64,000 nucleotides of DNA from a phage: the NCBI GenBank assembly GCA_012557565.1, contig GCA_012557565.1_3926.1. One strand, 5' to 3'. The position numbers and the translations under genes were made by a program. Position 1 is the first letter of the stretch; each line of letters begins with the position of its first letter. The notes below the pieces were generated by a model. The model did not search any database and was not told the DNA's origin. It saw only the letters and a program-made list of their open reading frames with translations. Below, in pieces: positions 3,092 to 53,956 of this stretch.

Positions 3092-5075
3092 ACCGAGAAA
3101 ACTGAAAGATGCTGGAACATTTGTAGGTCACTGTGCATGTCCACGCCCTCAATGTTTATCTTCAGATGCAGGTTCTATATATCGTCATGATGACGGTTCA
3201 TATTCAATGACATGTTTCAGTTGTGGAAAAGGTTTTCCAGAGTGGGATTTTGATAAAGGGCAGATTGTGAGTACTCATACTTCAGGTTCAGAGAATAAAA
3301 ACCGTACATTTCGTGGTATGGATTTGGATGATGTGAAAGAAAACCTAGAAGCAATGGATTTAAAAGATAGGAAGATTCCTGCAAAAGTCCTTGAGCGTCT
3401 CGGTATTAAAGTTGATATTGATGATAACGGTGATATTGATGCACATTTCTATCCAACATACAAAAAGGATGAAGATGGTAAGTTGCAACATGTAGGCTAT
3501 CGTGTTCGTCACAAATATCCAGATGACTACCACAAAGAGCACTTACGTGGGAAGTTGAAAGACTTTTCTGGTGGTGTCGGAGATATTAAAGGTGAACTGG
3601 CTATGTTCGGTTCATGGATTGCTCCAGAAGGTGGTAACCGTCTTTTCATCTGGGAAGGTGAGATGGAATGTGCTACAGCAATCTACATGACTTCTTTAGC
3701 AATTAAAGATAAGTCTAGACGTAAGAATTACTGCCACGTTTCTGTACCATCTGGTGCTAATGTTAAGTCTATCAAAGAGAACTATCAGTATATTACTTCC
3801 TTTGATGAAATCTACCTGTGCTTTGATAATGATGAAGCAGGGGCTAAAGCAACTAAGGAAGCTGCTGGTATCTTACCTATTGAGAAAGTAAGACTGTTCC
3901 AGTATCCTGAAGGTATTAAAGACCTTAGTGAGTGGTGGACTAAGTTCTTCAAAGACAAAGATACAGTCTTAGAAGGATTTAAACAACGAATCTACAATGC
4001 ACCTCGTTACTGCCCTGCTGGTATCAAGAACTTTGCAGATGGTTTCGATGCTATGAAGAATCGTGGTCAGATTCCTTTAATTCCTTTCCCAGATTCTTTC
4101 GGGGATTTGAATAAGCTGACTTATGGCGGGTATGGTTTAGGTGAGATTACAACCCTTGCTGCACCTTCATCTGTAGGTAAATCTGCGTATACTCGTGAAA
4201 TGATTTACAAAGCATGGAAAGATACTGAGTACAACATCGGCGTAATCCCTGTTGAGGATACTTACGAAGAACTTATGGAAATGCTCTGTGCAATCCATCT
4301 TAGCAAGCAGATTTCAGAGATTCCTTACGATGAGCGTAATTGGGATGAGATTAAGGTTGCACATGCTGAGTTGTCAAAAGGTCGTCGTATTCACATCGTA
4401 GACCACCAAGGGGCAATTGACCAAGATAACCTGCTGGAGTTTGTTGACTATCTGGTTAATAGTCTTGATTGTAAGATTATCATCCTTGACCCTATTACAT
4501 TGGCACTGTCACGCTCTGATACAGATGAAGAAGAAGTTCTGTCTGAGTTACTTCGTCGCTGTAAGCGTTATCAGTATGCTCAGGTAAACGTGTGTCACGT
4601 TCGTAAGAGTGCAGGTGGTCAAAAGGCTAACTCTGAAGGTGGTGATATTTCTGAAGAAGATATCAAGGGTTCTGGTGCATACTTCCAGATTTCCATGAAC
4701 AACATTTTGCTTATGCGTAACAAGGTTGACCCAGACCCTGTTAAAAAGAACTTGACAAAAATCAAGTTAACAAAATGTCGTCGTCATGGTAAATCAACTG
4801 GTATTGCTGGTCACACTTGGTACAATCCAGATACAGGCCGTCTTGTAAAGGCTGCTGGCTGTGGTGTTGATATTGATGGTGCAGCAGAGAATATTCGTCA
4901 GCAGTTCGGTATTGGTGAGGCTGAAGACCATTATGATGACTCTATGCCACACTATGAAGATGTTGATTTTGACCGTGAATCTGGAGAGATTTACACACAA
5001 GAGCAACGTGAAAGCTCTACCATCCCACCTGTGATTAACGAGGATAATGATGACTGTCCGTTCGAAACTGATTGA
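3084..5075 (+). CDS. DNA primase-helicase (T7 gp4-like)
   Basis: N-terminal Cys-rich zinc-binding segment (CACPRPQC ... CFSCGKG), TOPRIM-like FDNDEAG motif, Walker A-like APSSVGKSAY, DnaB-family-like C-terminal half. Confidence 0.8.
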   Translation: MAKPRKLKDAGTFVGHCACPRPQCLSSDAGSIYRHDDGSYSMTCFSCGKGFPEWDFDKGQIVSTHTSGSENKNRTFRGMDLDDVKENLEAMDLKDRKIPAKVLERLGIKVDIDDNGDIDAHFYPTYKKDEDGKLQHVGYRVRHKYPDDYHKEHLRGKLKDFSGGVGDIKGELAMFGSWIAPEGGNRLFIWEGEMECATAIYMTSLAIKDKSRRKNYCHVSVPSGANVKSIKENYQYITSFDEIYLCFDNDEAGAKATKEAAGILPIEKVRLFQYPEGIKDLSEWWTKFFKDKDTVLEGFKQRIYNAPRYCPAGIKNFADGFDAMKNRGQIPLIPFPDSFGDLNKLTYGGYGLGEITTLAAPSSVGKSAYTREMIYKAWKDTEYNIGVIPVEDTYEELMEMLCAIHLSKQISEIPYDERNWDEIKVAHAELSKGRRIHIVDHQGAIDQDNLLEFVDYLVNSLDCKIIILDPITLALSRSDTDEEEVLSELLRRCKRYQYAQVNVCHVRKSAGGQKANSEGGDISEEDIKGSGAYFQISMNNILLMRNKVDPDPVKKNLTKIKLTKCRRHGKSTGIAGHTWYNPDTGRLVKAAGCGVDIDGAAENIRQQFGIGEAEDHYDDSMPHYEDVDFDRESGEIYTQEQRESSTIPPVINEDNDDCPFETD

Positions 5076-18895: not shown

Positions 18896-19345
18896 ATGAT
18901 TTTTTGTAATTTACAAAAACATGTAATAGAAATTTTGTATAAAGAGTTTGGAACAGAGGGGACATTTGATTCTAATGAGGCTATTGATGTACTTCGAAAG
19001 AAAAGCCTATACATTAGAGGTCAATCAATTAATAATGCTCGTGGTTACTTGACAGCATTACGACAAACTGGTGTACTAATGACTGTAGGCCAGATAAAAA
19101 GTAAAGGTAGACTGAGCATTAACCAGTTAAATAAATCCTTCATGGAAAAGCACATCCAGCTATCACCATTATTGGATGAATCACATGAAGAACCTAAAAA
19201 TAAAGATGAGAACAAAATTGTTGACACAGACCCTGACGTAAGGTACTTTATTGAAAGTGCGATGTTTAATACCTTAGAAGAGGCTGTTGAGCATTGCAAA
19301 AAACACATCATTAAGATTAAACGTGCAAAGATTATTTGGGAATAA
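18896..19345 (+). CDS. hypothetical protein, tandem paralog A
   Basis: 149 aa; clear similarity to the next ORF (ILYKEFGTEG.FDSNEA..LR ... KIIWE). Confidence 0.6.
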   Translation: MIFCNLQKHVIEILYKEFGTEGTFDSNEAIDVLRKKSLYIRGQSINNARGYLTALRQTGVLMTVGQIKSKGRLSINQLNKSFMEKHIQLSPLLDESHEEPKNKDENKIVDTDPDVRYFIESAMFNTLEEAVEHCKKHIIKIKRAKIIWE

Positions 19346-19371
19346 TTTACACTAGCTAAAGAGACAAAGTT

Positions 19372-19821
19372 ATGATTAGCTCATTTTATGTAACGCTTGT
19401 TGAGATACTACACGAAAAGTTCGGGACTGATAAGGAATTTGATTCCAATGAAGCGGTGAAAGCTCTAAGAAGTAATTGTGATTATCTTAAGAAAATGCCG
19501 ATAGCTAATTCAAGGTATTACTTATCAGCGTTGCGTAAAGTTGGGGTTCTCGTGACTGTCAAGCATGGTAGCAAAAATGGTGGAGTTCTTTATATCAACC
19601 AGTTAAGCAAACCATTTATGGAAAATGAACCACGACTAGCAAGACTGGTTACTGGTGTAAAAGACCAAGTAAAAACTACAGAAATCCAAATAATACAAGA
19701 ACAAAACCCAAATGTTAAGTACTTTATTGGTGAGATGATGTTTGATACAATGGATGAGGCAGTTGAGTATTGTAAAAAGAACATCATTAAATTAAAAAGA
19801 AAGAAAATTATTTGGGAATAA
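19372..19821 (+). CDS. hypothetical protein, tandem paralog B
   Basis: 149 aa; paralog of 18896-19345, same C-terminal KIIWE. Confidence 0.6.
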   Translation: MISSFYVTLVEILHEKFGTDKEFDSNEAVKALRSNCDYLKKMPIANSRYYLSALRKVGVLVTVKHGSKNGGVLYINQLSKPFMENEPRLARLVTGVKDQVKTTEIQIIQEQNPNVKYFIGEMMFDTMDEAVEYCKKNIIKLKRKKIIWE

Positions 19822-19833
19822 TAATTTACAAAC

Positions 19834-27101: not shown

Positions 27102-27650
27102 ATGAAGAAATTTGTTTTAGGTTTGTGCTTATTCTTTACAGCACATTTAGCTACAGCATCTGACTGTCCAGAACTTACAATCAGTCAGAAAGTAAATATG
27201 TTAAAAGCATATAACTATGGCGAAGGACAGATGGGAAAAGGTTGGGGAATACCTTTAGCAGCTATAGCCTTACAAGAGTCACAATTAGGTGTCATGTTAG
27301 AAAATAAAAGGACTCATGATTATGGTGTTTTCCAGAATCACTTGAAGACTGTTGTAAAGCGTAACAAAATATCTCCAAAGGTTGCTAAGAAGAAGTTGGT
27401 AAGTGACTTCCATTACTCAGCAAAAGAGGCTCATAAAGAGTTGCTATTCTGGACAAAGGTTCACGGTAACCCAGATGGAAAGTACTCTATGAAGCGTGTC
27501 CTAGCTTCTTATAATGCTGGTTACAAATATAAGATTCCAAAGGCTAGACAATATTCTCAAGATGTGTACAATAACATGAAATTGCTTGCTCAATGTGAGT
27601 TTGCAACAAACATTAAAAAGGTAAAATATGAGCGAATCAAAACAATTTGA
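27102..27650 (+). CDS. secreted lytic transglycosylase (SLT)-like protein with signal peptide
   Basis: N-terminal MKKFVLGLCLFFTAHLATA signal-like segment; ALQESQLG ... DYGVFQ blocks resemble SLT catalytic-Glu region; start moved to ATG 27102 (AGGAG 8 nt upstream). Confidence 0.5.
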   Translation: MKKFVLGLCLFFTAHLATASDCPELTISQKVNMLKAYNYGEGQMGKGWGIPLAAIALQESQLGVMLENKRTHDYGVFQNHLKTVVKRNKISPKVAKKKLVSDFHYSAKEAHKELLFWTKVHGNPDGKYSMKRVLASYNAGYKYKIPKARQYSQDVYNNMKLLAQCEFATNIKKVKYERIKTI

Positions 27651-28323
27651 TACGGTTCTGTGTCATGCTTATGATATCAAACCACTTGATTTAGATATCA
27701 GTTCTGCAAGCTGGTCAGACGTTGCTAAAGCTGACTTTGCAGATACAGCAAGATGTGTTGCATGTAGCTTTGAAGACTTTCATTCAACAAAGACACAGAT
27801 TCCTTGTCAAGATTTGCTAACAGGTAAGACTGTATATGTGGGTCGTAATAGTCTTATCTTGGTTGCAAAGAACTTGGAAGAAAAACGTAAAATGGTCTTA
27901 GCAGATATTGATGGTGTTCTTACAAGTTTTGATAAGAAACTTAATGCAACTCTGTTAGATGATGGTACTTACTCACAGTACACTAACTTGGTGGACTCTC
28001 GCAGAGCTAAACCAACTTATGTTTTTAACATCCTGTGTGGGATATCACAAAATGCTGATATAGGATTCTTAACTGCTCGTGGTGAATCACAGAGAGTGGT
28101 CACTCATCTCTTCCTGAATGAAAATGTAGACAGTGATTTCTTACTGTTTATGCGTGGATTTGGTGACAATGAGATTAGTGCAGAAAGTTTGAAAGTTCGT
28201 ATGCTTCAGTCTTGCATTCTACCTTACTATGATGTAGTATGCTTTATAGAAGATACAGTAAAGAACGTGGCAAAGGTCGAAAGAATCCTTCCACACATTA
28301 AAACAATGTTAGTTAAAAACTGA
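27628..28323 (+). CDS. HAD-like hydrolase motif protein
   Basis: LADIDGVLT resembles HAD motif I (DxDG), but it lies about 90 aa into the ORF; true start may be internal. Confidence 0.4.
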   Translation: MSESKQFDTVLCHAYDIKPLDLDISSASWSDVAKADFADTARCVACSFEDFHSTKTQIPCQDLLTGKTVYVGRNSLILVAKNLEEKRKMVLADIDGVLTSFDKKLNATLLDDGTYSQYTNLVDSRRAKPTYVFNILCGISQNADIGFLTARGESQRVVTHLFLNENVDSDFLLFMRGFGDNEISAESLKVRMLQSCILPYYDVVCFIEDTVKNVAKVERILPHIKTMLVKN

Positions 28324-28334
28324 GAGAGAAAACC

Positions 28335-28799
28335 ATGCAAAATATTATAACAGTAGCTATCGATGCAACCGGAAACAAATCTGAAGTTGTTCGTCGTATC
28401 ATCAAAGACAACTTTGAAGGTAAAATCTTCCGAGCAGTAAACGTCAAAGCTGACGGAGAGATTCGTGAGTATCGTGCTCTGCTGAATGTTTCTAAACACG
28501 TTAAAGGTGTTGGTTCTACAACTGCTCACAAAGAAAATCTGATGACCATCTATGATATGGGTATGGCTTCAGAACTTGGTGCAGCAGGGATTGTAAAACA
28601 GGGAGCACCATACCGTTCCTTCAATCTGGAAACTGCTCTTATGCTTTCCTTCACAAGTGGTGAAAAGACTACCACTTATCTGTTTACTGATGCTGCAACG
28701 GTATCAGCTATCAAGGACAGCACCATTAAATCTGGGGTTAACGCTGCTGCTAAAGCCTCAACAATGGCTGCAAATGTGCTTGCTAAAGTTCTAGGTTAA
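28335..28799 (+). CDS. hypothetical protein
   Basis: 154-aa ORF; terminator follows. Confidence 0.5.
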   Translation: MQNIITVAIDATGNKSEVVRRIIKDNFEGKIFRAVNVKADGEIREYRALLNVSKHVKGVGSTTAHKENLMTIYDMGMASELGAAGIVKQGAPYRSFNLETALMLSFTSGEKTTTYLFTDAATVSAIKDSTIKSGVNAAAKASTMAANVLAKVLG

Positions 28800-28810
28800 G
28801 GTTAATATAG

Positions 28811-28832
28811 AGGCTCCTTCGGGAGCCTTTTT
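28811..28832 (+). terminator. rho-independent terminator
   Basis: GGCTCC-TTCG-GGAGCC then TTTTT. Confidence 0.8.
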
Positions 28833-28851
28833 CATTTATAGGAGAAGTTAA

Positions 28852-29199
28852 ATGACATTTAAAGAATTTTGTCAAGCAGCTTTTGTAATCATTTTTCTGT
28901 TAGGTGTAGGTGCTTGGGGCGGTTACACTTACAAGACTAGCCAAGTTAACGAGAAAGAGTTGACTAATCAGAAGCTTGTTAGTGTTGCTAAGGATGCTTA
29001 CCAAGAAGGTTTAGCAAATCTTAGTGCTAATTATAAAAATGATTTGAAAGATGTGCTTGCTAAAAACAAACACACAAAAGAGGTATTGACCTATGAAAAA
29101 ACTAAGACAGAGTTTTATAATATTTGTGCTACTGAGCCTTATATCGGGGTGTTCAACCAACAAAGTGAACAGTACCTTCAAAAACTCCCAAGTAAGTGA
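28852..29199 (+). CDS. putative i-spanin-like protein (N-terminal TM helix)
   Basis: N-terminal FVIIFLLGVGAWGGYTY hydrophobic helix then charged region; 3' end overlapped out of frame by a lipoprotein ORF. Confidence 0.45.
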   Translation: MTFKEFCQAAFVIIFLLGVGAWGGYTYKTSQVNEKELTNQKLVSVAKDAYQEGLANLSANYKNDLKDVLAKNKHTKEVLTYEKTKTEFYNICATEPYIGVFNQQSEQYLQKLPSK

Positions 29200-29362
29200 G
29201 AGTGACAAGTACACTCAGGAAGAGACTAGGTACACTGTCAAGGGTACTAAGGGTGAAGACCTTGCTAGTGCTATGGAGTTTTATCGTGATGGATTCTATG
29301 AATGTGCTATCAAGGCAAACAATTTGATTGATATGATTTTGTTAGGGAATAAACAGCAATGA
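29093..29362 (+). CDS. putative o-spanin-like outer-membrane lipoprotein
   Basis: MKKLRQSFIIFVLLSLISGCSTN: signal peptide with LISGC lipobox; start embedded in the 3' part of the preceding gene in another frame. Confidence 0.45.
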   Translation: MKKLRQSFIIFVLLSLISGCSTNKVNSTFKNSQVSESDKYTQEETRYTVKGTKGEDLASAMEFYRDGFYECAIKANNLIDMILLGNKQQ

Positions 29363-29628
29363 CAGAAAAGAGTGAAACGTTTTATGTAGAAGGTTACTTA
29401 CTTCTTCCAAGACCAAGTAACACTTATATGAGAATTGATTTCTTACCAACTATCATGGATGATGTAATGTGTCACCTGTTTATTCAGGGTATTACAGCAC
29501 AGTTAAAACATGTTGGAAGAGAATGTAAGATTCGTGTTGACAATCATCCTGAAATCAACGAGAATCACTACATCTGGTTCGGTGAAAACTCCAAAGAAAT
29601 CTACGCAACGTTAAAAACGAGGAAATGA
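29359..29628 (+). CDS. hypothetical protein
   Basis: 89-aa ORF. Confidence 0.45.
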   Translation: MTEKSETFYVEGYLLLPRPSNTYMRIDFLPTIMDDVMCHLFIQGITAQLKHVGRECKIRVDNHPEINENHYIWFGENSKEIYATLKTRK

Positions 29629-29784
29629 TTGTGGACAAACAGAAGCTTCTTAACTTGATTGAAGAGTATGGTGATACCCGTTTTAATATTGGTATTGCAC
29701 AGGTTAAAGATTCAATTGAAAACTCTACCTTATGGGAAGAAGCTTCAGAAGCAATCTTACAACAAATTAAAGAGGTAATCTATA

Positions 29785-30111
29785 ATGGAACTTAATGGTA
29801 AAACCATTGTAGCCGTCTTCTCAGATAATGAGAAAGATATTGGTGTAGCCCAAGTGACATATGGCAATGGTGAGTTTCTATATGGTGTAATCGCCATGAT
29901 TGGTACAAGAGGCGATACCCCAACATTCCAAGATTGTGTACATAAGCTCGAAGAGTCTGTTAGAAATCATTGGTGTCTCGTTTGGATGAACGATAATGAT
30001 ATCAAAGAGCGTTACGCTAAAATTGGTATTGACATTGTTGGTATTGAACATGTAGACTTATATCAACTAACTGAAAAGGTAATGTATGAAAGTTCTAATC
30101 GTCAGAAATAA
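29785..30111 (+). CDS. hypothetical protein
   Basis: 108-aa ORF. Confidence 0.5.
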   Translation: MELNGKTIVAVFSDNEKDIGVAQVTYGNGEFLYGVIAMIGTRGDTPTFQDCVHKLEESVRNHWCLVWMNDNDIKERYAKIGIDIVGIEHVDLYQLTEKVMYESSNRQK

Positions 30112-30307
30112 AAAGACACGGCAAATTATAGCATCTGGTATCTATGTAGGGAGAAGTGAAGTAATCCCGTTTACCGAGGTTTTCTCACATAAAGAAACCT
30201 TCAAATATTATTTGGATGAAGGCTTCTTACGTTCAAACGTTGAAAGTTTTAAACAGACTTTCACCAGTAATCGTACAGTCACTCAAGAGGTAATCTTAAA
30301 TGGCTGA
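30086..30307 (+). CDS. hypothetical protein
   Basis: 73-aa ORF. Confidence 0.4.
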   Translation: MKVLIVRNKKTRQIIASGIYVGRSEVIPFTEVFSHKETFKYYLDEGFLRSNVESFKQTFTSNRTVTQEVILNG

Positions 30308-30500
30308 TTTCTGCAAGAGTTGTTCTATTGAAATGTTTGGACGTGATACAGGAGACTTGAAAGGTCTTATCACTGAAGATGATTTCAAAGCTGGTTATGC
30401 TATGCCAACACTCTGTGAAGGTTGTGGTGGAATCTGGGTAGACCATGAAGGGCAACGTGTAAAACCTTCTGAAGATAAAGAATCGTGGGAGGAATGGTAA
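30300..30500 (+). CDS. hypothetical Cys-rich (zinc-ribbon-like) protein
   Basis: CKSCS ... CEGCGG cysteine pairs. Confidence 0.4.
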   Translation: MADFCKSCSIEMFGRDTGDLKGLITEDDFKAGYAMPTLCEGCGGIWVDHEGQRVKPSEDKESWEEW

Positions 30501-30501: not shown

Positions 30502-31296
30502 ATGGGTATCGTAAAAATTATTAAAGGTGATATCTTTAAAGACTTTGATAATAAGAAGTTTGATATCATTGGTCACGGTTGTAACTGCATGAACTTAATG
30601 GGTGCAGGTATTGCAGCAACAATTGCTAAACGTTATCCAAAAGCTTATGAGACTGATGCTGAAGTTTATGCTACAGTTGGTGGTGAAGGTCATAAACCTA
30701 AGCATCTTATGCTTGGTAACATCTCTGTAGCACGTTTTAAGCAGGGTCGAATTGCTAACCTTTACACTCAGGTTATCACTGGTAAAGATGCACGATACAA
30801 TGCTTTAGAAGCAGCTTTGCAGCGTCTTAATAACTACTGCAAAGTAAACCAGCTTAAGAAAGTTGGACTTCCTATGATTGGTGCAGGGATTGGTGGTCTT
30901 GATAGCATGGCTGTGCTGTCTATCATCAATCAGACCATGAAAGATGTTGACGTTTATATGTATGTCTATGAAGATAAGATGTACAGTCAGTTGACTAGTC
31001 CGGTTACTGGTTGGGAAAACTTTAGTGAACCTCAATACTTTGATGGTGTTGCCGTGGTAGGCAAGGATAAAGTTACTCTCAAGGTGAAGCGTAATGGTAA
31101 GGTACACACCAGTTACCCTCCGGTTGAGAAGTACAATCGAAGTAACGCTCAAGTTACCCACCCGTTACAAGGCCATTGTCACAGAGCCGTAACATTTGGT
31201 GATGATGCAAGTGTGTATATCGGTGCTGCTACAGAAGAGTTTGCAGAGGATTATATCACACATGAGAATGTTAACTATGTTGAAGCACGTAACTAA
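30502..31296 (+). CDS. hypothetical protein (GHGCNC...MGAGIA motif, possibly macro-domain-like)
   Basis: 264 aa; motif IIGHGCNCMNLMGAGIAATIAKRYP vaguely recalls ADP-ribose-binding macro-like folds; unverified. Confidence 0.45.
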   Translation: MGIVKIIKGDIFKDFDNKKFDIIGHGCNCMNLMGAGIAATIAKRYPKAYETDAEVYATVGGEGHKPKHLMLGNISVARFKQGRIANLYTQVITGKDARYNALEAALQRLNNYCKVNQLKKVGLPMIGAGIGGLDSMAVLSIINQTMKDVDVYMYVYEDKMYSQLTSPVTGWENFSEPQYFDGVAVVGKDKVTLKVKRNGKVHTSYPPVEKYNRSNAQVTHPLQGHCHRAVTFGDDASVYIGAATEEFAEDYITHENVNYVEARN

Positions 31297-31320: not shown

Positions 31321-31368
31321 AAGCCCTCCAAAGTTTGAGTTTAAAATCTCAGGTAAGGAGGGCTTTTT
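31321..31368 (+). terminator. hairpin terminator (long loop)
   Basis: AAGCCCTCC ... GGAGGGCTT then TTTTT. Confidence 0.55.
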
Positions 31369-31556
31369 CATTTCAAATTTGTGCAGGTGCAATTGCATAG
31401 AACTCTGGACAGATTTCTTTAGCTGAACTCCAAAGGGAAAATTCATTTTCAATTTGTGCAGGTCTAGACTCCAAAGGGCTTTTTCATTTTCAATCTGTGC
31501 AGATGCAGTTGGACTCCAAAGGGAAAATTCATTTTCAATTTGTGCAGGTAGGTAGC
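31357..31556. repeat. tandem array: terminator-derived copy plus three 41-45 bp direct repeats (units start 31428, 31469, 31514)
   Basis: Unit CTCCAAAGGG(aaaat/ctttt)TCATTTTCAAT(T/C)TGTGCAG(G/A)T; shared TGTGCAGG core also at promoter 27043-27070. Confidence 0.85.
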
Positions 31557-31722: not shown

Positions 31723-31751
31723 TTGACTCTATGAATCCAGTTTTGTAGTAT
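31723..31751 (+). promoter_or_regulatory. sigma70-like promoter opening the small-gene region
   Basis: TTGACT, 17-bp spacer, TAGTAT; followed by GGGGCAAGCAAGCCCC hairpin and the CCTAAACTGGAG leader. Confidence 0.5.
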
Positions 31752-31803
31752 TTGCATCAACGGGGCAAGCAAGCCCCAACAATCCTAAACTGGAGAATCT
31801 AAG

Positions 31804-32010
31804 ATGTTATATCAACGTGAATTAATGATTGTTGACAACAACAAAACAAAGAAACGCCGTTTTTATATGCTAATCTGCGACGTTTGGCAACGTATCTCAG
31901 AAAAGGATTTTGATAAATATGTTGATACGTCAATCAGGTCTGATTGTTACCTGACAAATCACACAAGACAATTTACAAGACATACGGCAATTTATTACTA
32001 TAACGTTTAA
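31804..32010 (+). CDS. hypothetical small protein (cassette gene 1)
   Basis: 68 aa; conserved leader upstream. Confidence 0.5.
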   Translation: MLYQRELMIVDNNKTKKRRFYMLICDVWQRISEKDFDKYVDTSIRSDCYLTNHTRQFTRHTAIYYYNV

Positions 32011-32021
32011 AGGGCTTGACA

Positions 32022-32183
32022 ATGATTAAAGAAGGTTATGTAATAAAGTACAAAGGGCAAGACGGATACACAAAGTTGGGACGTGTTTTCTATCTCTATA
32101 CTTCAGTGATGGGCAATGAGTGTATAGCCCTTACAAATGGCGACAAAATAACCATGAAAGATTTTATAAAAATTATTTCATAA
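32022..32183 (+). CDS. hypothetical small protein (53 aa)
   Basis: Own translation MIKEGYVIKYKGQDGYTKLGRVFYLYTSVMGNECIALTNGDKITMKDFIKIIS; no cassette; below track cutoff. Confidence 0.3.
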   Translation: MIKEGYVIKYKGQDGYTKLGRVFYLYTSVMGNECIALTNGDKITMKDFIKIIS

Positions 32184-32268
32184 AGTACTTTACATGGGGT
32201 TTATAAATTGCTAGTATAAGCCCCAGATAAAGAGCTTTACCAACAATCCTAAACTGGAGAATCTAAAA

Positions 32269-32649
32269 ATGAAATATCGTGCGCCTAAATTTATCAACAA
32301 AGAAAACTTTCGTGATGCTCTGGAAAATTCCATGAATGAGCAGTTCAAAGGTAAAATCATTGTTGTTCACGCTTACAATTTTAAGTATGATGTAAATGGT
32401 AACAAGATAAACCACTACACCGCTACAATGTTAGATGGTACACTCTCAGGAGAAAAGGCTATTATAAATGCACTGGCTGGACGTGGTAAAACGTTAATCC
32501 GTTGCGATAAGCGCCGCTATCAAGGAAGTGCTTATGGTTATGAGGATGCAATCTATCATCTTGATAACATGGGTTACAACGTGGTAAAAGCTGGAGTATC
32601 TCAAATGATTGGCAGTGATGGCTATGTAACAATCTTTGAAATTAACTAA
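32269..32649 (+). CDS. hypothetical protein (cassette gene 2)
   Basis: 126 aa; conserved leader. Confidence 0.55.
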   Translation: MKYRAPKFINKENFRDALENSMNEQFKGKIIVVHAYNFKYDVNGNKINHYTATMLDGTLSGEKAIINALAGRGKTLIRCDKRRYQGSAYGYEDAIYHLDNMGYNVVKAGVSQMIGSDGYVTIFEIN

Positions 32650-32734
32650 TAAAGTACTTTACATGGGGTTTATAGTTCGATAGGATAAGCCCCAGATAAA
32701 GAACTTTATCACTAACCTAAACTGGAGTTTTAAA

Positions 32735-32992
32735 ATGGCTACTATCAAAAATATCGTAATTACTGCAAAGTCCCGTGATGACGCTCGCGCAACTGCTAAA
32801 AAATTAAATGGCAAAGTGGTTGACAACGGAAAAGAATCTGCTGTAAGATGGGGTGTGAAGACAGACAAGAAATTAACCCTTAAACATAGTTCTTACAACA
32901 TGTTTAAAGGTGTGAAAACTATCGGTAACACTAACGTATTCACAAAGCAAGGTTACAAAATGCACTTATCATTAACTGACAATTTAATCTGA
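32735..32992 (+). CDS. hypothetical protein (cassette gene 3)
   Basis: 85 aa; conserved leader variant. Confidence 0.55.
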   Translation: MATIKNIVITAKSRDDARATAKKLNGKVVDNGKESAVRWGVKTDKKLTLKHSSYNMFKGVKTIGNTNVFTKQGYKMHLSLTDNLI

Positions 32993-33083
32993 TAAAGTGC
33001 TTTACATGGGGTTTATAAGTTGTTAGTATAAGCCCCAGATAAAGAGCTTTACTAACCAATAGTCCTAAACTGGAGATTCTAAA

Positions 33084-33596
33084 ATGAAAACCACTGATGC
33101 TATTTTTGAAGTTGTAAAAGAAAAATACACCATTATTTATGCAGCAGTTAATTTCTATGAGCCTTCCCATTGTGTGGATAACTGGCAATTTACTGATGAG
33201 CATAAAGGAGGGATTACAATCAAAGTTAAGAATGCAGAACGTAACAGCTACAAATATGCAATCCCTACGCATTACCCACTTTCACAGCTTGCCAGTGACT
33301 ACGCAAAACAGGGAAGGGATAACCCATCATTGGAAGCTTACAAGAGCTTACAGGATGAGCTAGAAAGGGATTTAGAAGCTAATAGTTATATCTTGTATGC
33401 CTCAGTAATTGACGCTGAAGGGAACACGGTTTTAAATAGTTTTTCTCTTGCGTACTCTTTTGATTGGTGCTATCTTGACGGGGAAGATTTAGAGACACGT
33501 TTAGAAGAGGAAGTGTCGAACTCTGACGGGGAGACTGAAGTGATGGAACGTTTAGAAGCCTTGAAAGATTCAGTTATGAATATCTTTAATATCTAA
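33084..33596 (+). CDS. hypothetical protein (cassette gene 4)
   Basis: 170 aa; conserved leader. Confidence 0.55.
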   Translation: MKTTDAIFEVVKEKYTIIYAAVNFYEPSHCVDNWQFTDEHKGGITIKVKNAERNSYKYAIPTHYPLSQLASDYAKQGRDNPSLEAYKSLQDELERDLEANSYILYASVIDAEGNTVLNSFSLAYSFDWCYLDGEDLETRLEEEVSNSDGETEVMERLEALKDSVMNIFNI

Positions 33597-33679
33597 AAGT
33601 GCTTTACATGGGGTTATCAAGTTGATAAGATAGCCCCAGATAAAGAGCTTTACCAACAATCCTAAACTGGAGAATCAAA

Positions 33680-33976
33680 ATGTTTATTGCCGCAAACGTT
33701 AGAACTAAATTAAGCCAACTATTAAACAACATTCAATTCATTGAATCTATGCGCCGTCAATCTGAAGCTGTAGAGTGGTATCATGGAAAGATTAACAAAA
33801 AAGAAGTAATAGTTTGTGTATGGAACTTTTGTAGAGAATACAAAAAGCCGTTGCTTCAGGTTGATATCTATGATAACACTAACAAGTCATCGATTAAGAC
33901 CACTAGAGATATGATTGATTCATATGAAATTAGTCACACTGGAAAATTATTTCACAAAGGCGTAAACAAATGTTAA
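33680..33976 (+). CDS. hypothetical protein (cassette gene 5)
   Basis: 98 aa; conserved leader. Confidence 0.55.
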   Translation: MFIAANVRTKLSQLLNNIQFIESMRRQSEAVEWYHGKINKKEVIVCVWNFCREYKKPLLQVDIYDNTNKSSIKTTRDMIDSYEISHTGKLFHKGVNKC

Positions 33977-34317
33977 TCACATATACAGCTATTTTTATCT
34001 CTATTGTGGCGCTCTATAAAGCCTTTAAAGCGCATCAGTTAGCTAATAAGGCAATCACAAGGGATTTAAAAATAAACCTTGTAAGGGGCTTTATAGAGCG
34101 TTTAAGCTTGGAACAATTGAAACGTTTAGAGATGAGCTTTCGATTTAAAGCGGAGACATACAGAATCGACAACATTCTAGCAGGTGATTTTAAGCTAATT
34201 AGTGATTATGACATACTGTTAGAAGCAATTCAAGATATAAATTTAAAAGATTATTACATCGTAATAGCTCAAGAAATTAATAAAAAAGAGCTTGCAATGA
34301 AAAACCAAAACAAGTAA
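33970..34317 (+). CDS. hypothetical protein
   Basis: 115 aa; overlaps upstream gene by 7 nt, no own cassette. Confidence 0.5.
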   Translation: MLITYTAIFISIVALYKAFKAHQLANKAITRDLKINLVRGFIERLSLEQLKRLEMSFRFKAETYRIDNILAGDFKLISDYDILLEAIQDINLKDYYIVIAQEINKKELAMKNQNK

Positions 34318-34382
34318 AGTATTTATCAACGGGGAGGGAAAACTCCCCCACTAAGCAAAATTCCTAAACTGGAGAATCTAAA

Positions 34383-34655
34383 ATGTATACAACTAACAAT
34401 GGTCATACCCTTAATGTAACTCTAAAGCACTATGTAGACGGTGTATTGAACTTTGAAGAGTTAAGAGCAGAACAGCATTTATTAGACTGGCAAGTAGCAG
34501 GACTGCAAAAAACTGCTACGGGGTACGGTACAAAAATTCCTACATCTTGGAAAGTACGCTATTTAGGAAAGTTACGAAGAATTTATCAAGATGTTTATAG
34601 CAATAGTGGTGTAAGTTACATTATTGTTAACGGTAAAAAGTTGTATTTAGTCTAA
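34383..34655 (+). CDS. hypothetical protein (cassette gene 6)
   Basis: 90 aa; conserved leader. Confidence 0.55.
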   Translation: MYTTNNGHTLNVTLKHYVDGVLNFEELRAEQHLLDWQVAGLQKTATGYGTKIPTSWKVRYLGKLRRIYQDVYSNSGVSYIIVNGKKLYLV

Positions 34656-34743
34656 TAAATTGCTTTACATGGGGTTATCAGGTTGATAAGATAGCCCCAG
34701 ATAAAGAGATTTATCTGACACTAACCTAAACTGGAGAATCAAA

Positions 34744-35151
34744 ATGACTACTATTAATCATAAAGAAGTTGCAATTCTGAAAGCACGTTTGACTATTAAC
34801 CGTATCAACATTGTCACATCAGCAGCACCAGATGAAACATTGCATAATATTATTGGTAAAATTCAGGGTGTAGTAGTAGATGTAAAACAGATTAAAGAAG
34901 CTTTACAAGACGTAGCAGCGGGGGCTATAATTGACGGCGCACAATATGAAATGCAGGAAATGCTTTCAAAATCTAGAGTAATGAATAAAGAATTAGACTT
35001 GAAGATGTTTCGATTTGCTGTTAAAGTATGGCTATGTGTTGATTTTGATGCTAACTTTGCAATAGCTGATTTCTTTGCTACATGGTTACAGCGTAATTTA
35101 CCATCAGAAAAATTTCGTGAAATTTGCGATGCAATTTATTCAGAAATTTGA
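34744..35151 (+). CDS. hypothetical protein (cassette gene 7)
   Basis: 135 aa; conserved leader. Confidence 0.55.
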   Translation: MTTINHKEVAILKARLTINRINIVTSAAPDETLHNIIGKIQGVVVDVKQIKEALQDVAAGAIIDGAQYEMQEMLSKSRVMNKELDLKMFRFAVKVWLCVDFDANFAIADFFATWLQRNLPSEKFREICDAIYSEI

Positions 35152-35232
35152 TTGACACTGCAAAAACATAGTAGTAAAGTACACATCAACGGGGCAAGCA
35201 AGCCCCAACAATCCTAAACTGGAGAATCTAAA

Positions 35233-35790
35233 ATGAAATGCTTTCATGGTACTACTCAAGAAAACTTTTTAAACCTTATCAATGGCGGTGAAAAACCATC
35301 AGGGGCTTGGAATTGCTCTGATATGGATGGATGTTTTTACGTGTACCCTGTTAATAAGTTCTATGATGTAGAAAGTTTAGACGACGAACAAATCACAAAC
35401 GAAGGTATTAGAAACGCGCTTGATAGCGCAAGCATTACAGCAGCGTATCAAATGAAGTCTCAAAAACTTGTTATCTTGGAACTTGACATTCCAGAGGAAG
35501 ATTTACAAGATGACTGGAGTTGTGAGAATATGAGCGACGTTGCAAGCTTTACAGAATACTTTGATAAGGCATGGATTAAAAAGATTTACACAACTGAATT
35601 TAACGCTATGTTTTCACCTTTCTTTGTTCCTAATCTGAATAACAAAAATTTGGGGTATATGCCTGACGAACTACACAACATTGCAACAATGGTACAGCGT
35701 AGCGATGAAATGAATAATGTGTATATAGATATCTATGAATCTATGCACGAAAACGTAGCAGAAACGGCTTTAAGCGATTTAACAGCATAA
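35233..35790 (+). CDS. hypothetical acidic protein (cassette gene 8)
   Basis: 185 aa; conserved leader. Confidence 0.55.
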   Translation: MKCFHGTTQENFLNLINGGEKPSGAWNCSDMDGCFYVYPVNKFYDVESLDDEQITNEGIRNALDSASITAAYQMKSQKLVILELDIPEEDLQDDWSCENMSDVASFTEYFDKAWIKKIYTTEFNAMFSPFFVPNLNNKNLGYMPDELHNIATMVQRSDEMNNVYIDIYESMHENVAETALSDLTA

Positions 35791-35853
35791 ACTATAGAAT
35801 CGTACCAGTTAACTAGAAAATCCCCGCATAGGGGCTTACAAGAGGCTTAAATA

Positions 35854-36084
35854 ATGCTTACAACAATCTATCTTATCCTGTCTATTTGCAACGGCTCACA
35901 ATGTGACTTCAAAGGATTAGAAGAGTTTACAGGAAGCGAAAACAATGCTATTGTAGCATGTCAGATAGCAAGGCAAGACTATCCCACATCGGATGATATA
36001 CAGTGTTACTATAAATCAGAAGATGAGGAGGGGATTTACTTTGATAGTGTGAATGGTGAATATGAAATTCTTATTGAAAAGTAG
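35854..36084 (+). CDS. hypothetical protein with N-terminal hydrophobic segment
   Basis: 76 aa; own CCCC-gcata-GGGG hairpin plus AAGAGG RBS. Confidence 0.45.
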   Translation: MLTTIYLILSICNGSQCDFKGLEEFTGSENNAIVACQIARQDYPTSDDIQCYYKSEDEEGIYFDSVNGEYEILIEK

Positions 36085-36171
36085 TTGACACTGGAAACGC
36101 AAACAAGTAAAGTATTTATCAACGGGGAGGGAATGACCTTCCCCAACAATCCTAAACTGGAGAATCTAAAA

Positions 36172-36513
36172 ATGGCATACGTAACAATTATCACTGATAA
36201 AGAAAACTCTTCTTGGTCTACACAAGTAAACGACAAAATGACACCTATGCAATGCCTCAAATACTTTGAGCAATGGAACAGGGGGGAAGATGTAAGTCCT
36301 TTCCAAGTAATGCAGGTTGTGCATGTTGACAATGAAGGGAACAAAACTACACTTAACACTGAATACTATGCTACACGTTTTGATACTCGCAAAGAAGCTA
36401 TGCGGGAACTAAGAGAAAAGGGCTATAGTCACATTGCCGCTTTGATTTGGTCTGATTTGCTTAAAAAACAAGCATTAACCTATGTCAAGCCAGAAAAAAT
36501 CTTTATAAGCTAA
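36172..36513 (+). CDS. hypothetical protein (cassette gene 9)
   Basis: Track ORF 36085-36513 trimmed to ATG 36172 directly after the conserved leader. Confidence 0.55.
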   Translation: MAYVTIITDKENSSWSTQVNDKMTPMQCLKYFEQWNRGEDVSPFQVMQVVHVDNEGNKTTLNTEYYATRFDTRKEAMRELREKGYSHIAALIWSDLLKKQALTYVKPEKIFIS

Positions 36514-36711
36514 TCAATGACTTACAAAAATCTTTGAAAAAACTGTTGACAATACCCCTTGACATTGATAGATTTGTTCGAGGGGGTTTATCTAAAGGGA
36601 TTCACTTAAAAGATTCTTTATAGATAAGCTGAAAATTCTCTTGCAATGGGTTATCAAAATCTGTATAGTTTCAATCAAGCAATGAAACAATCCTAAACTG
36701 GAGAATCTAAG

Positions 36712-36849
36712 ATGTTAGAAGTCATTAAAAACCCTATCTTGTGTGGAATGATTGTATCTTTCGTTATTCCTTTTGGTCTTCTGATAGCAAGTGAAATTCA
36801 AGATTATTTCTTCAATAAAAAGCTTGCAATGACCAACAAAAACAAGTAA
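36712..36849 (+). CDS. small membrane protein (45 aa, cassette gene 10)
   Basis: Own translation MLEVIKNPILCGMIVSFVIPFGLLIASEIQDYFFNKKLAMTNKNK; conserved leader; below track cutoff. Confidence 0.45.
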   Translation: MLEVIKNPILCGMIVSFVIPFGLLIASEIQDYFFNKKLAMTNKNK

Positions 36850-36911
36850 AGTACTTATCAACGGGGAAGGATAGGACTTCCCCACTAAATCCTAAACTGG
36901 AGAATCTAAAA

Positions 36912-37439
36912 ATGAATAAGTTTCAAGCTATCAATCATATCCGTTCCAATGCCGTGATGAGCAAGCCAGTAAAAGACACTTTCGAATTTCGCTGCAATGA
37001 CAAGTTGTTTGCAGTCATTACGAAAGGGGAGGATAAAAAATATTATGTACATCGCCAAAACGTTAAGGTAGTAACAGCAGATAACTTTATGCAAGCTGTT
37101 GCAACAATCCTCCCTGATTTTATGGCACTAGTCGCAGAACTTTGTGAACATTGCATCAAATCATCAAAAGAAGAGTTAAACCGCTTTAAAATGGCTTATG
37201 AGCGCTCTATCAAGTCCCATAACATGTATATCATGCCGTTGGCACATGGGATTATGGCGATGGGTACAGGTTGCCACCCTTGCAAGCTTTACGACGTAGA
37301 AAACATCTATCTAAGCGAGACAAAAGACAGTGATTTTAACTTACAGTTAGGGCAAGCATTGAATGATATGATTAAACTACACGAAAAATCTGTAAAAGAT
37401 ATGGAAAAAGAGCTTGACGAAATCATCAGAACTCTATAA
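36912..37439 (+). CDS. hypothetical protein (cassette gene 11)
   Basis: 175 aa; conserved leader. Confidence 0.55.
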   Translation: MNKFQAINHIRSNAVMSKPVKDTFEFRCNDKLFAVITKGEDKKYYVHRQNVKVVTADNFMQAVATILPDFMALVAELCEHCIKSSKEELNRFKMAYERSIKSHNMYIMPLAHGIMAMGTGCHPCKLYDVENIYLSETKDSDFNLQLGQALNDMIKLHEKSVKDMEKELDEIIRTL

Positions 37440-37498
37440 AGTACTCATCAACGGGGAGGGAATGACCTTCCCCAACAATCCTAAACTGGAGACTAGAA

Positions 37499-37762
37499 AT
37501 GAATAACGCAGAAATCACTATCCTGTTACAGATTGGTACTGACAAAGAAGATATCCAACTTTGCAAACGTATAGAAAGTGACTGGTTTAACGGTGAAATC
37601 ATCGCAGAATCTTATGAAGTAGTTGGATTCATGAATGGTGAAATTGTAAGCCATTTCGGTTTAACTAAATCTGAAGCCGTTGCAAAGTATGACGTTTTAT
37701 CTTGTGAGATTCTTACAAAATACAATGAAAAAAGACTTGCAACTTATGCAGCAATGAATTAA
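37499..37762 (+). CDS. hypothetical protein (cassette gene 12)
   Basis: 87 aa; conserved leader. Confidence 0.55.
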   Translation: MNNAEITILLQIGTDKEDIQLCKRIESDWFNGEIIAESYEVVGFMNGEIVSHFGLTKSEAVAKYDVLSCEILTKYNEKRLATYAAMN

Positions 37763-37827
37763 TATTACTTTCAACGGGGAGGGAATGACCTTCCCCACTA
37801 AACAACCCTAAACTGGAGACTTAAAAG

Positions 37828-38004
37828 ATGAATTTTGAACAGCGTATGATTGCAAAATTTGGTGCTAAACGTTGGGAAGAAATGAAAAAAGAGCATGAAG
37901 AAAAGAAAAATGAAGAGATGGTAGTCATCACTGGTACAGACTTGTTAAATCATTCAGTTACTAACTACATCATTTCCGGTAACTCTTACAAGAAAGTGAT
38001 TTAA
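37828..38004 (+). CDS. hypothetical small protein (58 aa, cassette gene 13)
   Basis: Own translation MNFEQRMIAKFGAKRWEEMKKEHEEKKNEEM...; conserved leader. Confidence 0.45.
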   Translation: MNFEQRMIAKFGAKRWEEMKKEHEEKKNEEMVVITGTDLLNHSVTNYIISGNSYKKVI

Positions 38005-38080
38005 AGTATTGACAAGGGGGCTTCAAAGCCCCTACTATAGAGACTCAATAAACAATAATCCTAAACTGGAGATTCTAAAA

Positions 38081-38329
38081 ATGGCAACTATCCGCGCAAC
38101 TGTTAACAATTTTGGTTTTTATGCTCTGGACGTTAAGTTTGACATGGTAAACACTGGAAATGCTTTTGATATGGTTGATATGTGTCTGAAAGCAACTGTG
38201 AAAGAATACAACCCTGCTGAATGGTTCTGGAAAGAAACGAAAGAGGAGATTTTAGCAAATGGCGTTTTATCTTACTATTGGGGCGATTCTCTTATCTCTA
38301 TCTATTACGATAAAGAAGGCCGCAACTAA
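38081..38329 (+). CDS. hypothetical protein (cassette gene 14)
   Basis: Track ORF 38009-38329 trimmed to ATG 38081 after the conserved leader. Confidence 0.55.
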   Translation: MATIRATVNNFGFYALDVKFDMVNTGNAFDMVDMCLKATVKEYNPAEWFWKETKEEILANGVLSYYWGDSLISIYYDKEGRN

Positions 38330-41683: not shown

Positions 41684-42190
41684 CTAAAATTTTAGGTTGC
41701 ATTCTTTACTTACCTCTTCAAACTTACTCTCAAACTCTACAATCTTCTTCTTGTAAGTTGTCATTCTCAAACATGATAGGATGATACCAACTATTGGAAT
41801 CACATACAAGAACCAAATCTCAGAAATTTTCTTCTCAGCTTGGTTAAACGTTAAATCCTGCATGTACATGCCACCGAAGGAGATTACACAAATCATAGCA
41901 AGGAATACAGATAACATGATTGCTATTCCTGCCCACCCTCTGGTATTATGTTCAGCATTTCTACGCTTATTTTCAAGATTGATAAGTTCGTTGTAGTCTG
42001 CTGAGAAGTCTCTGTAGAAAGCTTTCAAGTACTCTCTGCTGTAACCTTCAAAACATCCTGTACCAAACCAATTTTCACCTCCAAAGTGTGAAATAGTTCC
42101 TTCTTCACCGTTTGCTTTCACAATCTTGAAAGATACATGGTGTCTTGACTTCTCATAAGAAATCTGGTCTCTTGAATCTTCATAAATCAT
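41684..42190 (-). CDS. hypothetical membrane protein (two predicted TM segments)
   Basis: Hydrophobic stretches WAGIAIMLSVFLAMICVISF and LYVIPIVGIILSCL. Confidence 0.5.
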   Translation of the reverse strand: MIYEDSRDQISYEKSRHHVSFKIVKANGEEGTISHFGGENWFGTGCFEGYSREYLKAFYRDFSADYNELINLENKRRNAEHNTRGWAGIAIMLSVFLAMICVISFGGMYMQDLTFNQAEKKISEIWFLYVIPIVGIILSCLRMTTYKKKIVEFESKFEEVSKECNLKF

Positions 42191-45264: not shown

Positions 45265-45735
45265 CTATTTTGGATAAACAGCGTCAAGGTAAATTTTGGC
45301 TTCCAAACTACGCCTATTTTGTAGACCCTTGGAAGTTACTTTTTGACCATTCACTGTAATCTTGTTCCACCACTGCATAGCTTCTGCACAACCAGCTTTG
45401 TTACCAGCATTGTGACGCTTGATAAAAGTTGAATCCTGCATAGCACCGATGCCAATGTTGTAAGTCTCTACAACAAGTGCGTCAAATTCGTTCTGCGTAG
45501 TTGGAACCTTAATTGCTCTGTTTACTGCACCTACATAGTTTTCAACATCTGCAAGGAGATATTGAACAGCTTGTTCAGCAGTAATCTTCATCCCCATTGT
45601 TACAGGTCTTCCGTTGATACGGATTGTTCCATAGCCGATTGTGGGGATTCCAGCAGAGTCTTTATAAGCTTCTAAGCGAAGCCCTTCAAAGAACTTAATG
45701 GCTTCTAAGCCTTTACTTGAGAGTTGCATTATCAA
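45265..45735 (-). CDS. endolysin (phage lysozyme, GH24-like)
   Basis: LEAIKFFEGLRLEAYKDSAGIPTIGYG is the characteristic phage lysozyme N-terminal block. Confidence 0.75.
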   Translation of the reverse strand: MIMQLSSKGLEAIKFFEGLRLEAYKDSAGIPTIGYGTIRINGRPVTMGMKITAEQAVQYLLADVENYVGAVNRAIKVPTTQNEFDALVVETYNIGIGAMQDSTFIKRHNAGNKAGCAEAMQWWNKITVNGQKVTSKGLQNRRSLEAKIYLDAVYPK

Positions 45736-53654: not shown

Positions 53655-53882
53655 ATGTTTAAACTCATAGTTGAAAAACACCCAGAAGATGACAAGCTTG
53701 AAACAGGGAGATTTGGAGATACTTTCTTTATCAGAGTTGGCTGGAAAGCTGACCCATTAGAAGTTAGAAAGATTGTCTACAACTTTGCTGGTTTGGAATT
53801 AAAGCAAGTCATCTTTGAAACAATGTTGCCAGAAAATAAAGATACATGCAATAACGCATATATTCTTACAAGAGTTAGTTAG
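53655..53882 (+). CDS. hypothetical small protein, tandem paralog 2
   Basis: 75 aa MFKLIVEKHPEDDKLE... paralogous to 53383-53610 (shared FETMLPENKDTCNNAYILTRV). Confidence 0.55.
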   Translation: MFKLIVEKHPEDDKLETGRFGDTFFIRVGWKADPLEVRKIVYNFAGLELKQVIFETMLPENKDTCNNAYILTRVS

Positions 53883-53956
53883 GGGATTAGTTTACAAGGT
53901 TAAAACCTCGGTCTTTGAAATCGAAGAAGTTGGTTCAATTCCAACATCCCCCGCCA
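53881..53956 (+). tRNA. tRNA-Gln(TTG)
   Basis: D-stem GTTT/AAAC, anticodon stem TCGGT/ATCGA, loop CTTTGAA, T-arm GTTGG-TTCAATT-CCAAC, CCA; 1:72 mismatch. Confidence 0.7.

Follow-up and report, generated by a model that had tools for sequence, protein, structure and literature searches.

A probable two-component spanin encoded by overlapping genes in a Moogle/Felix O1-type phage of enterobacteria

The closest described relatives of the locus examined here come from Moogle and Mijalis, Citrobacter phages of the genus Mooglevirus (Ounavirinae), whose records name the two ORFs i-spanin and o-spanin and give each a ribosome-binding site (CPT_Moogle122/CPT_Moogle121, AIW03859/AIW03858; Mijalis 126/125). 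The Mijalis announcement refers to "an overlapping bimolecular spanin complex" (PMC5543628), and the Moogle genome paper reports the endolysin, both spanins and a putative holin at scattered sites, an arrangement that Moogle shares with Felix O1-like phages. Kongari et al. (2018; PMC6139136) assign Moogle, Felix O1, wV8, UAB_Phi87 and others to overlapped 'JH2' families, comprising 15 members for the i-spanin and 11 for the o-spanin, with Felix O1 p014 and its overlapping partner belonging to these same families. At least one periplasmic cysteine is present in 507 of 528 curated two-component spanin systems. A search of the literature found no experiments on the Felix O1-type (JH2) spanin family.

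Lambda Rz/Rz1 shares with the present pair its proposed mechanism, in which an inner-membrane subunit and an outer-membrane lipoprotein make C-terminal contact and form intermolecular disulfides, with membrane fusion following once the wall is degraded. Rz1 is, however, fully embedded in Rz, proline-rich with a penta-proline, and encoded in the S-R-Rz cassette, whereas the pair described here is partly overlapped, encodes a mature o-spanin without proline and lies 15.9 kb from the endolysin gene. By gene architecture, proline content and the lack of a Pfam spanin match, the pair falls outside the lambda Rz/Rz1 family. P2 LysB/LysC is the prototype of the overlapped architecture, and the likeness extends to an o-gene that begins in the 3' part of the i-gene, in the +1 frame, and extends beyond the i-gene stop codon, as well as to the products, a type-II inner-membrane protein and an outer-membrane lipoprotein. 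The P2 pair sits in a lysis cassette, unlike the pair described here. P2 constitutes a separate family in Kongari et al. (2018), and the two are likened by the definition of the architecture.

The T4 pair PseT.3/PseT.2 resembles the present one in size (117/99 aa versus 115/89 aa here), in its location outside a lysis cassette and one gene from the polynucleotide kinase gene (pseT/pnk), and in an o-spanin with a predicted C-terminal helix and without proline enrichment. T4 endolysin gene e and holin gene t are located elsewhere in the T4 genome. The T4 pair has been validated experimentally by complementation of lambda, T4 and lambda being the only systems with such functional data in the literature consulted. 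It differs in having 'separated' genes with a 4-nt overlap, and in its periplasmic cysteines, which number 0 + 2 versus 1 + 1 here. The shared pnk neighbourhood raised the idea of homology to the T4 spanins, which was rejected when BLASTP of both subunits against PseT.3/PseT.2 returned no alignment at E<=100. The pair falls outside the T4 family, and the pnk neighbourhood common to both is treated as coincidence or relic.

The overlapping genes and their products

The stretch of DNA analysed, referred to as the window, is 64,000 nucleotides (64 kb) long, and an ORF pair within it is very probably the two-component spanin of a Moogle/Felix O1-type myophage (Ounavirinae) of enterobacteria. Topology, gene architecture and curation form the basis of the assignment, and from them we infer the function. 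The sequence features of two-component spanins, a functional class defined by Summer et al. (2007) and Kongari et al. (2018), are found together in the pair, encompassing the topology of the products, the gene order and overlapped architecture, an o-spanin start of its own, periplasmic cysteines, and coding in both frames. This feature was known from annotation, publication and curation, to which direct evidence of dual-frame selection is added here. Positions are given in Table 1.

Table 1. Positions of the spanin genes, their signals and the genes and elements discussed in the text
Feature	Position	Strand	Basis or remark
Polynucleotide kinase	27628-28323	+	
154-aa ORF	28335-28799	+	no assigned function
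Intrinsic-terminator-like hairpin and T-run	28809..28838	+	GAGGCTCC-TTCG-GGAGCCTT; terminator scan
i-spanin Shine-Dalgarno, AGGAG	28840..28844	+	7 nt 5' of ATG; also in Kongari 2018 supplement
i-spanin gene, 115 aa	28852..29199	+	ORF list, hydropathy, phrog_1152, curated spanin table
Hydrophobic stretch of i-spanin	28867-28923		residues 6-24
o-spanin Shine-Dalgarno, GAGGT	29080..29084	+	inside i-spanin CDS, 8 nt 5' of ATG
o-spanin gene, 89 aa	29093..29362	+	ORF list, pattern search, phrog_4180
Dual-coding overlap, 107 nt	29093..29199	+	i-spanin residues 81-115 / o-spanin residues 1-36
Lipobox LISGC	29138-29152		o-spanin
Macro-domain/phosphatase gene	30502-31296	+	
Endolysin, soluble T4-lysozyme-type muramidase	45265..45735	-	phrog_7, E=6e-56; NCBIfam lysozyme-family; Moogle homologue annotated endolysin

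Signal peptide and membrane helix calls were obtained by hydropathy and pattern matching, complemented by the curators' LipoP-based set, which lists the same protein pair. The 115-aa protein has a sole hydrophobic stretch (FCQAAFVIIFLLGVGAWGG, Kyte-Doolittle 1.86), followed by a polar, charged tail rich in K, E, D and Q, with D/E/K/R making up 26 of the 115 residues. Its cysteines occupy positions 7 and 92, the conserved Cys92 sitting in the periplasmic domain, which is predicted to span residues ~28-115 (~88 residues) and to be mostly helical. A single N-terminal transmembrane segment with a largely helical periplasmic domain is the topology of a type-II i-spanin, the presumed orientation being N-in/C-out. 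AF2 models of both subunits were single-sequence and of low confidence (pLDDT 51 and 64), and their secondary structure alone was used. For the i-spanin, a membrane helix and four periplasmic helices are predicted, at 40-55, 59-71, 81-92 and 97-111, with low pLDDT. The identical 115-aa protein is given in the Kongari 2018 supplement (PMC6139136) with a periplasmic domain of 66% helix and one coiled-coil segment at 52-79. In the profile search, the protein matched phrog_1152, 'Rz-like spanin' (E=1e-34). Its AGGAG leader is kept in 28 of the 29 related loci, the exception being locus L032, with the leader TAGAGGATACTAAAA.

The second ORF is read in the +1 frame with respect to the first. The N-terminus of its 89-aa product is MKKLRQSFIIFVLLSLISGC, comprising a basic n-region, a hydrophobic core, the lipobox LISGC with Cys20, and Ser at +2. 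The lipoprotein signal covers residues 1-19, with the predicted cleavage site lying between MKKLRQSFIIFVLLSLISG and CST. The mature protein has 70 aa with one further cysteine, the conserved Cys71, and there are 0 prolines in the 89 aa. By pattern match, the lipobox Cys of signal peptidase II (SPII) is present without the Lol-avoidance Asp at +2, as is characteristic of an o-spanin. When the strict lipoprotein-signal pattern was run over every ORF of 50 aa or more in the six frames of the 64-kb window, it matched the 89-aa ORF alone. In the AF2 model, the signal forms a helix, residues ~31-54 form a disordered linker, and a C-terminal helix spans 55-88, with pLDDT of 80-88 over residues 61-80; a linker followed by such a helix fits an o-spanin. 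The Shine-Dalgarno context AAGAGGTA is unchanged in 29/29 related loci, and the ribosome-binding site is annotated in Moogle and Mijalis.

These results agree with the preliminary description, in which a 115-aa ORF with an N-terminal transmembrane helix and a subsequent charged region was followed by a second ORF, starting in its 3' part in another frame and carrying the lipobox LISGC. That reading had been made to depend on a lipoprotein signal and on a ribosome-binding site and conservation of the second ORF. The signal is present by pattern match, a conserved GAGGT was found, and the ORF is under purifying selection, as described below.

The best PHROG match of the o-spanin is phrog_4180 (E=1e-48), labelled 'unknown function', along with a weak match to the spanin-labelled phrog_456 (Rz-like spanin, E=0.006). 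Neither protein had a meaningful match in Pfam or NCBIfam; weak NCBIfam matches to Gram-positive lipoproteins span the signal peptide only and were discounted. Points that speak against the spanin reading are the o-spanin's best PHROG family, which has no function label, the lack of a Pfam/NCBIfam match for either protein, the absence of proline from the mature o-spanin, unlike in Rz1, and the low confidence of the AF2 models.

Catalogued and distant relatives

Megablast of positions 27500-30500 against the phage collection returned Moogle (KM236239) and Mijalis (KY654690) at 99.0% identity over 100% of the query. No substantive difference separates these loci from that of the window, with the same lengths, overlap, Shine-Dalgarno sequences and neighbourhood (rIIB, pnk, one ORF, pair). 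The 115-aa protein is letter-for-letter the 'Moogle_OIS' entry of the Kongari supplement, classified as 'ovl' with an overlap of 107 nt and an AGGAG leader, and the supplement gives the same 107-nt overlap for Felix O1. By sequence, the two proteins are members of the JH2 (Felix O1-type) families and of PHROG 1152 and 4180. The o-spanin is 100% identical to that of IMG/VR contig L004 and that of Salmonella phage S.Kent 1-2-1. In tblastn, 319 and 307 phage records match the i- and o-spanin, respectively, most of them from Ounavirinae. Taken over its full length, the window is related to Moogle in a mosaic fashion, with 98-99% identity at 20.8-32.3 kb and 80-92% across most of the remaining sequence.

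The comparison with curated spanin families proposed in the preliminary description finds the pair in the Kongari 2018 catalogue, under JH2. What had been called an overlapped i-spanin-like and o-spanin-like pair agrees with the Moogle and Mijalis annotation, two genome announcements and the curated catalogue. The pair would represent the outer-membrane-disruption module of a well-sampled group of enterobacterial phages, and biocontrol and therapy are existing or proposed uses of several members.

More distant relatives occur in an Erwinia phage, whose pair has ~30% identity to the window's spanins, and in Kuravirus (phiEco32-like podophages, e.g. EK5 and NJ01), where each subunit has a homologue (pairwise E of 3e-11 and 2e-11). 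Neither Cys92 of the i-spanin nor Cys71 of the o-spanin varies among Mooglevirus, Felixounavirus, an Erwinia phage and a Kuravirus. Two motifs are kept in the Erwinia phage and EK5, namely EK..(P)xF.N.C...Y...FN in the i-spanin and E-[FWY]-[YW]-x-D-x4-C-A...N-x-L in the o-spanin. The Kuravirus pair resembles the window's in its C-terminal motifs YEKTKxxFYNxC...FN and E[FW]YxDxxxxCA...N.L, in both cysteines, in its location outside the lysis cassette and in the macro-domain gene that follows, but differs in its podovirus background and in its identity of only 28-32%. These distant relatives support the view that the C-terminal regions are probably the functional core of the spanins. In Kongari 2018, the Kuravirus i-spanins are grouped with the JH2 family but the o-spanins are not; the likeness in sequence points to homology between the Kuravirus and Felix O1-type o-spanins, though they are catalogued separately.

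In EK5 and the Erwinia phage Prophecy, the homologous pair adjoins neither an endolysin nor a holin gene. The family never adjoins endolysin or holin genes, even in Kuravirus, which removes guilt-by-association support and counts against the spanin reading.

Lysis genes, genomic setting and proposed function

The true start of the endolysin gene is likely the ATG at 45729. It lies 15.9 kb from the spanin pair on the opposite strand, in agreement with the preliminary description, which put the distance at about 16 kb. That the window contains an endolysin is in keeping with the spanin reading. For the holin, the hydropathy of all 40-250 aa ORFs in the window was screened, followed by PHROG scans of plausible membrane proteins. 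No holin was recognised adjoining the pair or the endolysin, as had been anticipated, and the candidate membrane proteins 13515, 15976, 23186, 33970, 36712 and 41684 matched only PHROG families of 'unknown function'. The 'putative holin' of Moogle had no tblastn match within the window; its gene follows the tail-fibre gene, at Moogle 36143-36517, and thus belongs to a part of the genome that lies outside the window. The holin of Felix O1-like phages is only putative. The distance from the endolysin had been singled out as noteworthy; the distance itself stands, but it is not unusual, such separation being documented as the rule in Felix O1-like phages. In these and in T4-like phages, lysis genes are normally scattered.

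On the plus strand, the order is rIIB, a hypothetical gene, polynucleotide kinase, the 154-aa ORF, a hairpin, the spanin pair, small ORFs and the macro-domain/phosphatase gene. The hairpin, which can also be written GAGGCTCC-TTCG-GGAGCCTTTTTCATTT, ends directly 5' of the i-spanin Shine-Dalgarno, has an RNA fold of -14.8 kcal/mol, is conserved in most related loci and is annotated as a terminator in Mijalis. No convincing promoter was found between the hairpin and the i-spanin Shine-Dalgarno. With a conserved terminator directly upstream and no convincing promoter, read-through is the likeliest source of mRNA, and the pair is probably transcribed in this way at a modest level.

The position after a terminator, in an early-looking block, is naively odd for a late lysis function and is a point against the spanin reading, offset by the T4 spanin genes, which lie in a comparable block beside pseT.

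For a two-component spanin, the following sequence of events is proposed, after the paradigms of lambda Rz/Rz1 and T4 PseT.3/PseT.2. The i-spanin would be anchored in the inner membrane, with its helical tail extending into the periplasm. The o-spanin would be lipidated at Cys20, cleaved by signal peptidase II and Lol-sorted to the inner leaflet of the outer membrane, the outer membrane being the expected destination because the +2 residue is Ser. The C-terminal domains of the two subunits would bind each other through the peptidoglycan mesh, and homodimers may be disulfide-locked via Cys92 in the i-spanin and Cys71 in the o-spanin. Once the holin frees the endolysin and the wall is degraded, the complexes would collapse and fuse the inner and outer membranes, representing the last step of lysis.

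A different role for an envelope-spanning complex, such as lysis timing or inhibition with rIIA/rIIB, or envelope remodelling, with some other factor disrupting the outer membrane, is considered quite improbable. The pair lies near rIIB, in an early-type context behind a terminator, and such a role would be in keeping with a lytic function that is deduced and a group holin that is putative. Against it, no second ORF with a lipoprotein signal occurs in the window, which spans part of the genome; the pair has all topological and architectural features of a two-component spanin, and curators file it as one.

An early superinfection-exclusion or receptor-masking lipoprotein, like T5 Llp or the Cor proteins, with the membrane protein unrelated or accessory, is judged very improbable. 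It would suit the early-type block, containing rIIB, polynucleotide kinase and small ORFs away from endolysin and holin, and a lipoprotein whose best PHROG family has no assigned function and whose link to lysis is itself deduced. It is opposed by the obligatory pairing with a type-II membrane protein through a conserved 107-nt overlap, which is a spanin signature, by one conserved periplasmic cysteine per partner, as in spanin dimers, and by the validated T4 spanin genes, which occupy a comparable non-cassette site by pnk. The pair is, moreover, co-conserved in phages of Citrobacter, Salmonella, E. coli, Shigella and Erwinia and in Kuravirus podophages; these hosts, and presumably their receptors, differ, and conservation of a receptor-specific exclusion protein over such a range would be unexpected. 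Strict pairing, cross-host co-conservation and the cysteine pattern disfavour both of these roles.

Returning to the spanin reading, a broader and tentative proposal, which we regard as possible but doubtful, is that the Ounavirinae/Kuravirus module constitutes a structurally distinct spanin class, characterised by a proline-free o-spanin whose conserved C-terminal helix (E-F/W-Y-x-D-x4-C-A...N-x-L) would pair with a conserved C-terminal Cys motif of the i-spanin, and perhaps expressed through terminator read-through from an early/middle operon, uncoupled from endolysin and holin. If so, the spanin supply would be set well before lysis, following a regulatory logic unlike that of cassette phages, and the o-spanins of Ounavirinae and Kuravirus would form one family.

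Selection on both reading frames

Patterns of variation were examined in 29 loci with 79-100% amino-acid identity, obtained by an IMG/VR scan with the 89-aa protein, of which 27 distinct sequences were used for site counts. All 29 loci keep the ORFs of 115 and 89 aa, the start codon, the 107-nt overlap, the SGC lipobox, the GAGGT core and Cys71. In the i-only segment (241 nt), 39% of sites are variable (95 sites), with 59 of the 95 falling at position 3 of the first frame. In the o-only segment (160 nt), variability is 43% (69 sites), and the preferred position shifts to position 3 of the second frame (46/69). The overlap itself is 24% variable, with changes evenly spread and no codon-position bias. 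Pairwise dN outside the overlap ranges from 0.03 to 0.15, versus dS of 0.41-1.9 where estimable and otherwise saturated; for the o-only segment, the corresponding values are 0.065-0.147 versus 0.57, 1.9 or saturated. Third-position bias outside the overlap, combined with suppressed variability inside it, indicates selection on both frames. Both frames are protein-coding and under purifying selection, with double constraint in the overlap.

That only the first ORF is genuine, the second with its 'lipobox' being a chance frame, might be argued from the frequency of short overlapping ORFs by chance and from the many deposited genomes of this phage group in which the second ORF is unannotated as o-spanin, but it is effectively refuted by the substitution pattern, with 46 of 69 variable sites downstream of the overlap at second-frame position 3 and low dN alongside high dS, as well as by the length, start, GAGGT, SGC and Cys71 being invariant in 29 loci, by recognisable homologues of the second ORF in Erwinia phages (31-35% identity) and Kuravirus (28%), and by its standing as the only lipoprotein-signal ORF of the 64-kb window.

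An antisense ORF at 29011-29214 (67 aa, hydrophobic) was dropped, the substitutions fitting the two plus-strand frames.

The results also serve as an annotation check, given that in many deposited genomes of the group one or both genes are still called 'hypothetical protein', or the o-spanin start is placed too far downstream. Several GenBank records have Kuravirus o-spanins annotated from a start that omits the lipoprotein signal, among them EK5, whose o-spanin is annotated from a downstream start.

Transcriptional context and neighbours of the spanin pair

The expression of the spanin genes seems to depend on terminator read-through, since the hairpin of a conserved intrinsic terminator ends directly at the i-spanin ribosome-binding site, with nothing resembling a promoter in between. 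In two relatives, L006 and L032, the sequence context upstream of the pair is different.

A polynucleotide kinase gene lies one gene away from the spanin pair, and at the T4 pseT locus (L035, T4 134002-135781) the spanin genes pseT.2 and pseT.3 are likewise separated from pseT by one gene. Because the T4 spanin proteins show no sequence similarity to those of the window, this common kinase neighbourhood is either a coincidence or an old syntenic relic. On the downstream side, the pair is followed by a macro-domain/phosphatase gene, and in Kuravirus EK5 a gene annotated as 'Appr-1-p processing enzyme' (3463-3903 of the EK5 locus, L036) directly follows the homologous spanin pair. The spanin pair and the macro-domain gene may form a small module common to myophage and podophage lineages.

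In EK5 and Erwinia phage Prophecy, the coding sequences deposited at the o-spanin position, as o-spanin or 'hypothetical', start too far downstream and have no signal peptide; the full-length ORFs begin with MRKLNQFFIMSALVMSMSAC... in EK5 and MKRLSNLFFLTSVLVMTTASC... in Prophecy, each with a lipobox.

Holin candidates

A 168-aa membrane protein encoded on the strand of the endolysin gene, approximately 3 kb from it, is a possible candidate for the holin; its N-terminal half is soluble, and two transmembrane helices lie toward the C-terminus. The 'putative holin' annotated in the Citrobacter phage Moogle contains a single N-terminal membrane helix followed by a long, helical-looking tail rich in Q, E and K. 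A protein resembling an i-spanin or T4 T could have such a topology just as well as a classical holin, and the holin of this phage group therefore remains putative.

Features of the window and of related loci discussed in the text
Feature	Position	Strand	Description
Stretches without Moogle counterpart (examples)	18899-19833, 32274-32992, 53368-53880		
Polynucleotide kinase gene	27628-28323		One gene from spanin pair
Intrinsic-terminator hairpin	28809-28838	+	Conserved; abuts i-spanin ribosome-binding site
Macro-domain/phosphatase gene	30502-31296	+	phrog_335, E=2e-106; 1.1 kb downstream of spanin pair
Tandem repeat, family D8	31346-31549		Four copies of ~43-nt unit ACTCCAAAGGGAAAATTCATTTTCAATTTGTGCAGGT
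168-aa membrane protein	41684-42190	-	phrog_4343, family without function label
tRNA cluster	50010-55238	+	25 tRNA genes, one strand only
Moogle 'putative holin'	L034 10644-11018 (Moogle 36143-36517), outside window		124 aa; phrog_4038, family without function label
EK5 deposited CDS	L036 3203-3463		Start too far downstream; no signal peptide
Prophecy deposited CDS	L037 2501-2776		Start too far downstream; no signal peptide

Genome mosaicism and repeated elements

The window (1-64000) is a mosaic Mooglevirus-like genome, with 98-99% identity to Moogle and Mijalis at about 20.8-32.3 kb and 80-92% over most of the remaining sequence. Shigella phage ESh19 is the best match at 36-46 kb (92%), and Moogle lacks a counterpart to several segments of about 200-930 bp.

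A tandem repeat lies close behind the macro-domain gene. Further on, a conserved leader comprising a ribosome-binding site and start codon, AACAATCCTAAACTGGAGAATCTAAAATG, occurs in 13 copies on the plus strand at 31741-38085, each preceding a small ORF. Most copies carry an upstream G+C-rich hairpin, GGGGAGGGAATGACCTTCCCC or GGGGCAAGCAAGCCCC, together with an A/T-rich AAAGTACTTTACA-like box, the whole constituting a predicted repeated promoter/hairpin/RBS cassette. These cassettes resemble the promoter-early stem-loop elements of T4-type phages, elements that can promote the shuffling of genes as modules.

The Moogle tRNAs homologous to those of the window's cluster are annotated in GenBank on the strand equivalent to the window's minus strand, as mapped by the window-Moogle alignment, which looks like a strand error in the GenBank record or its feature table.
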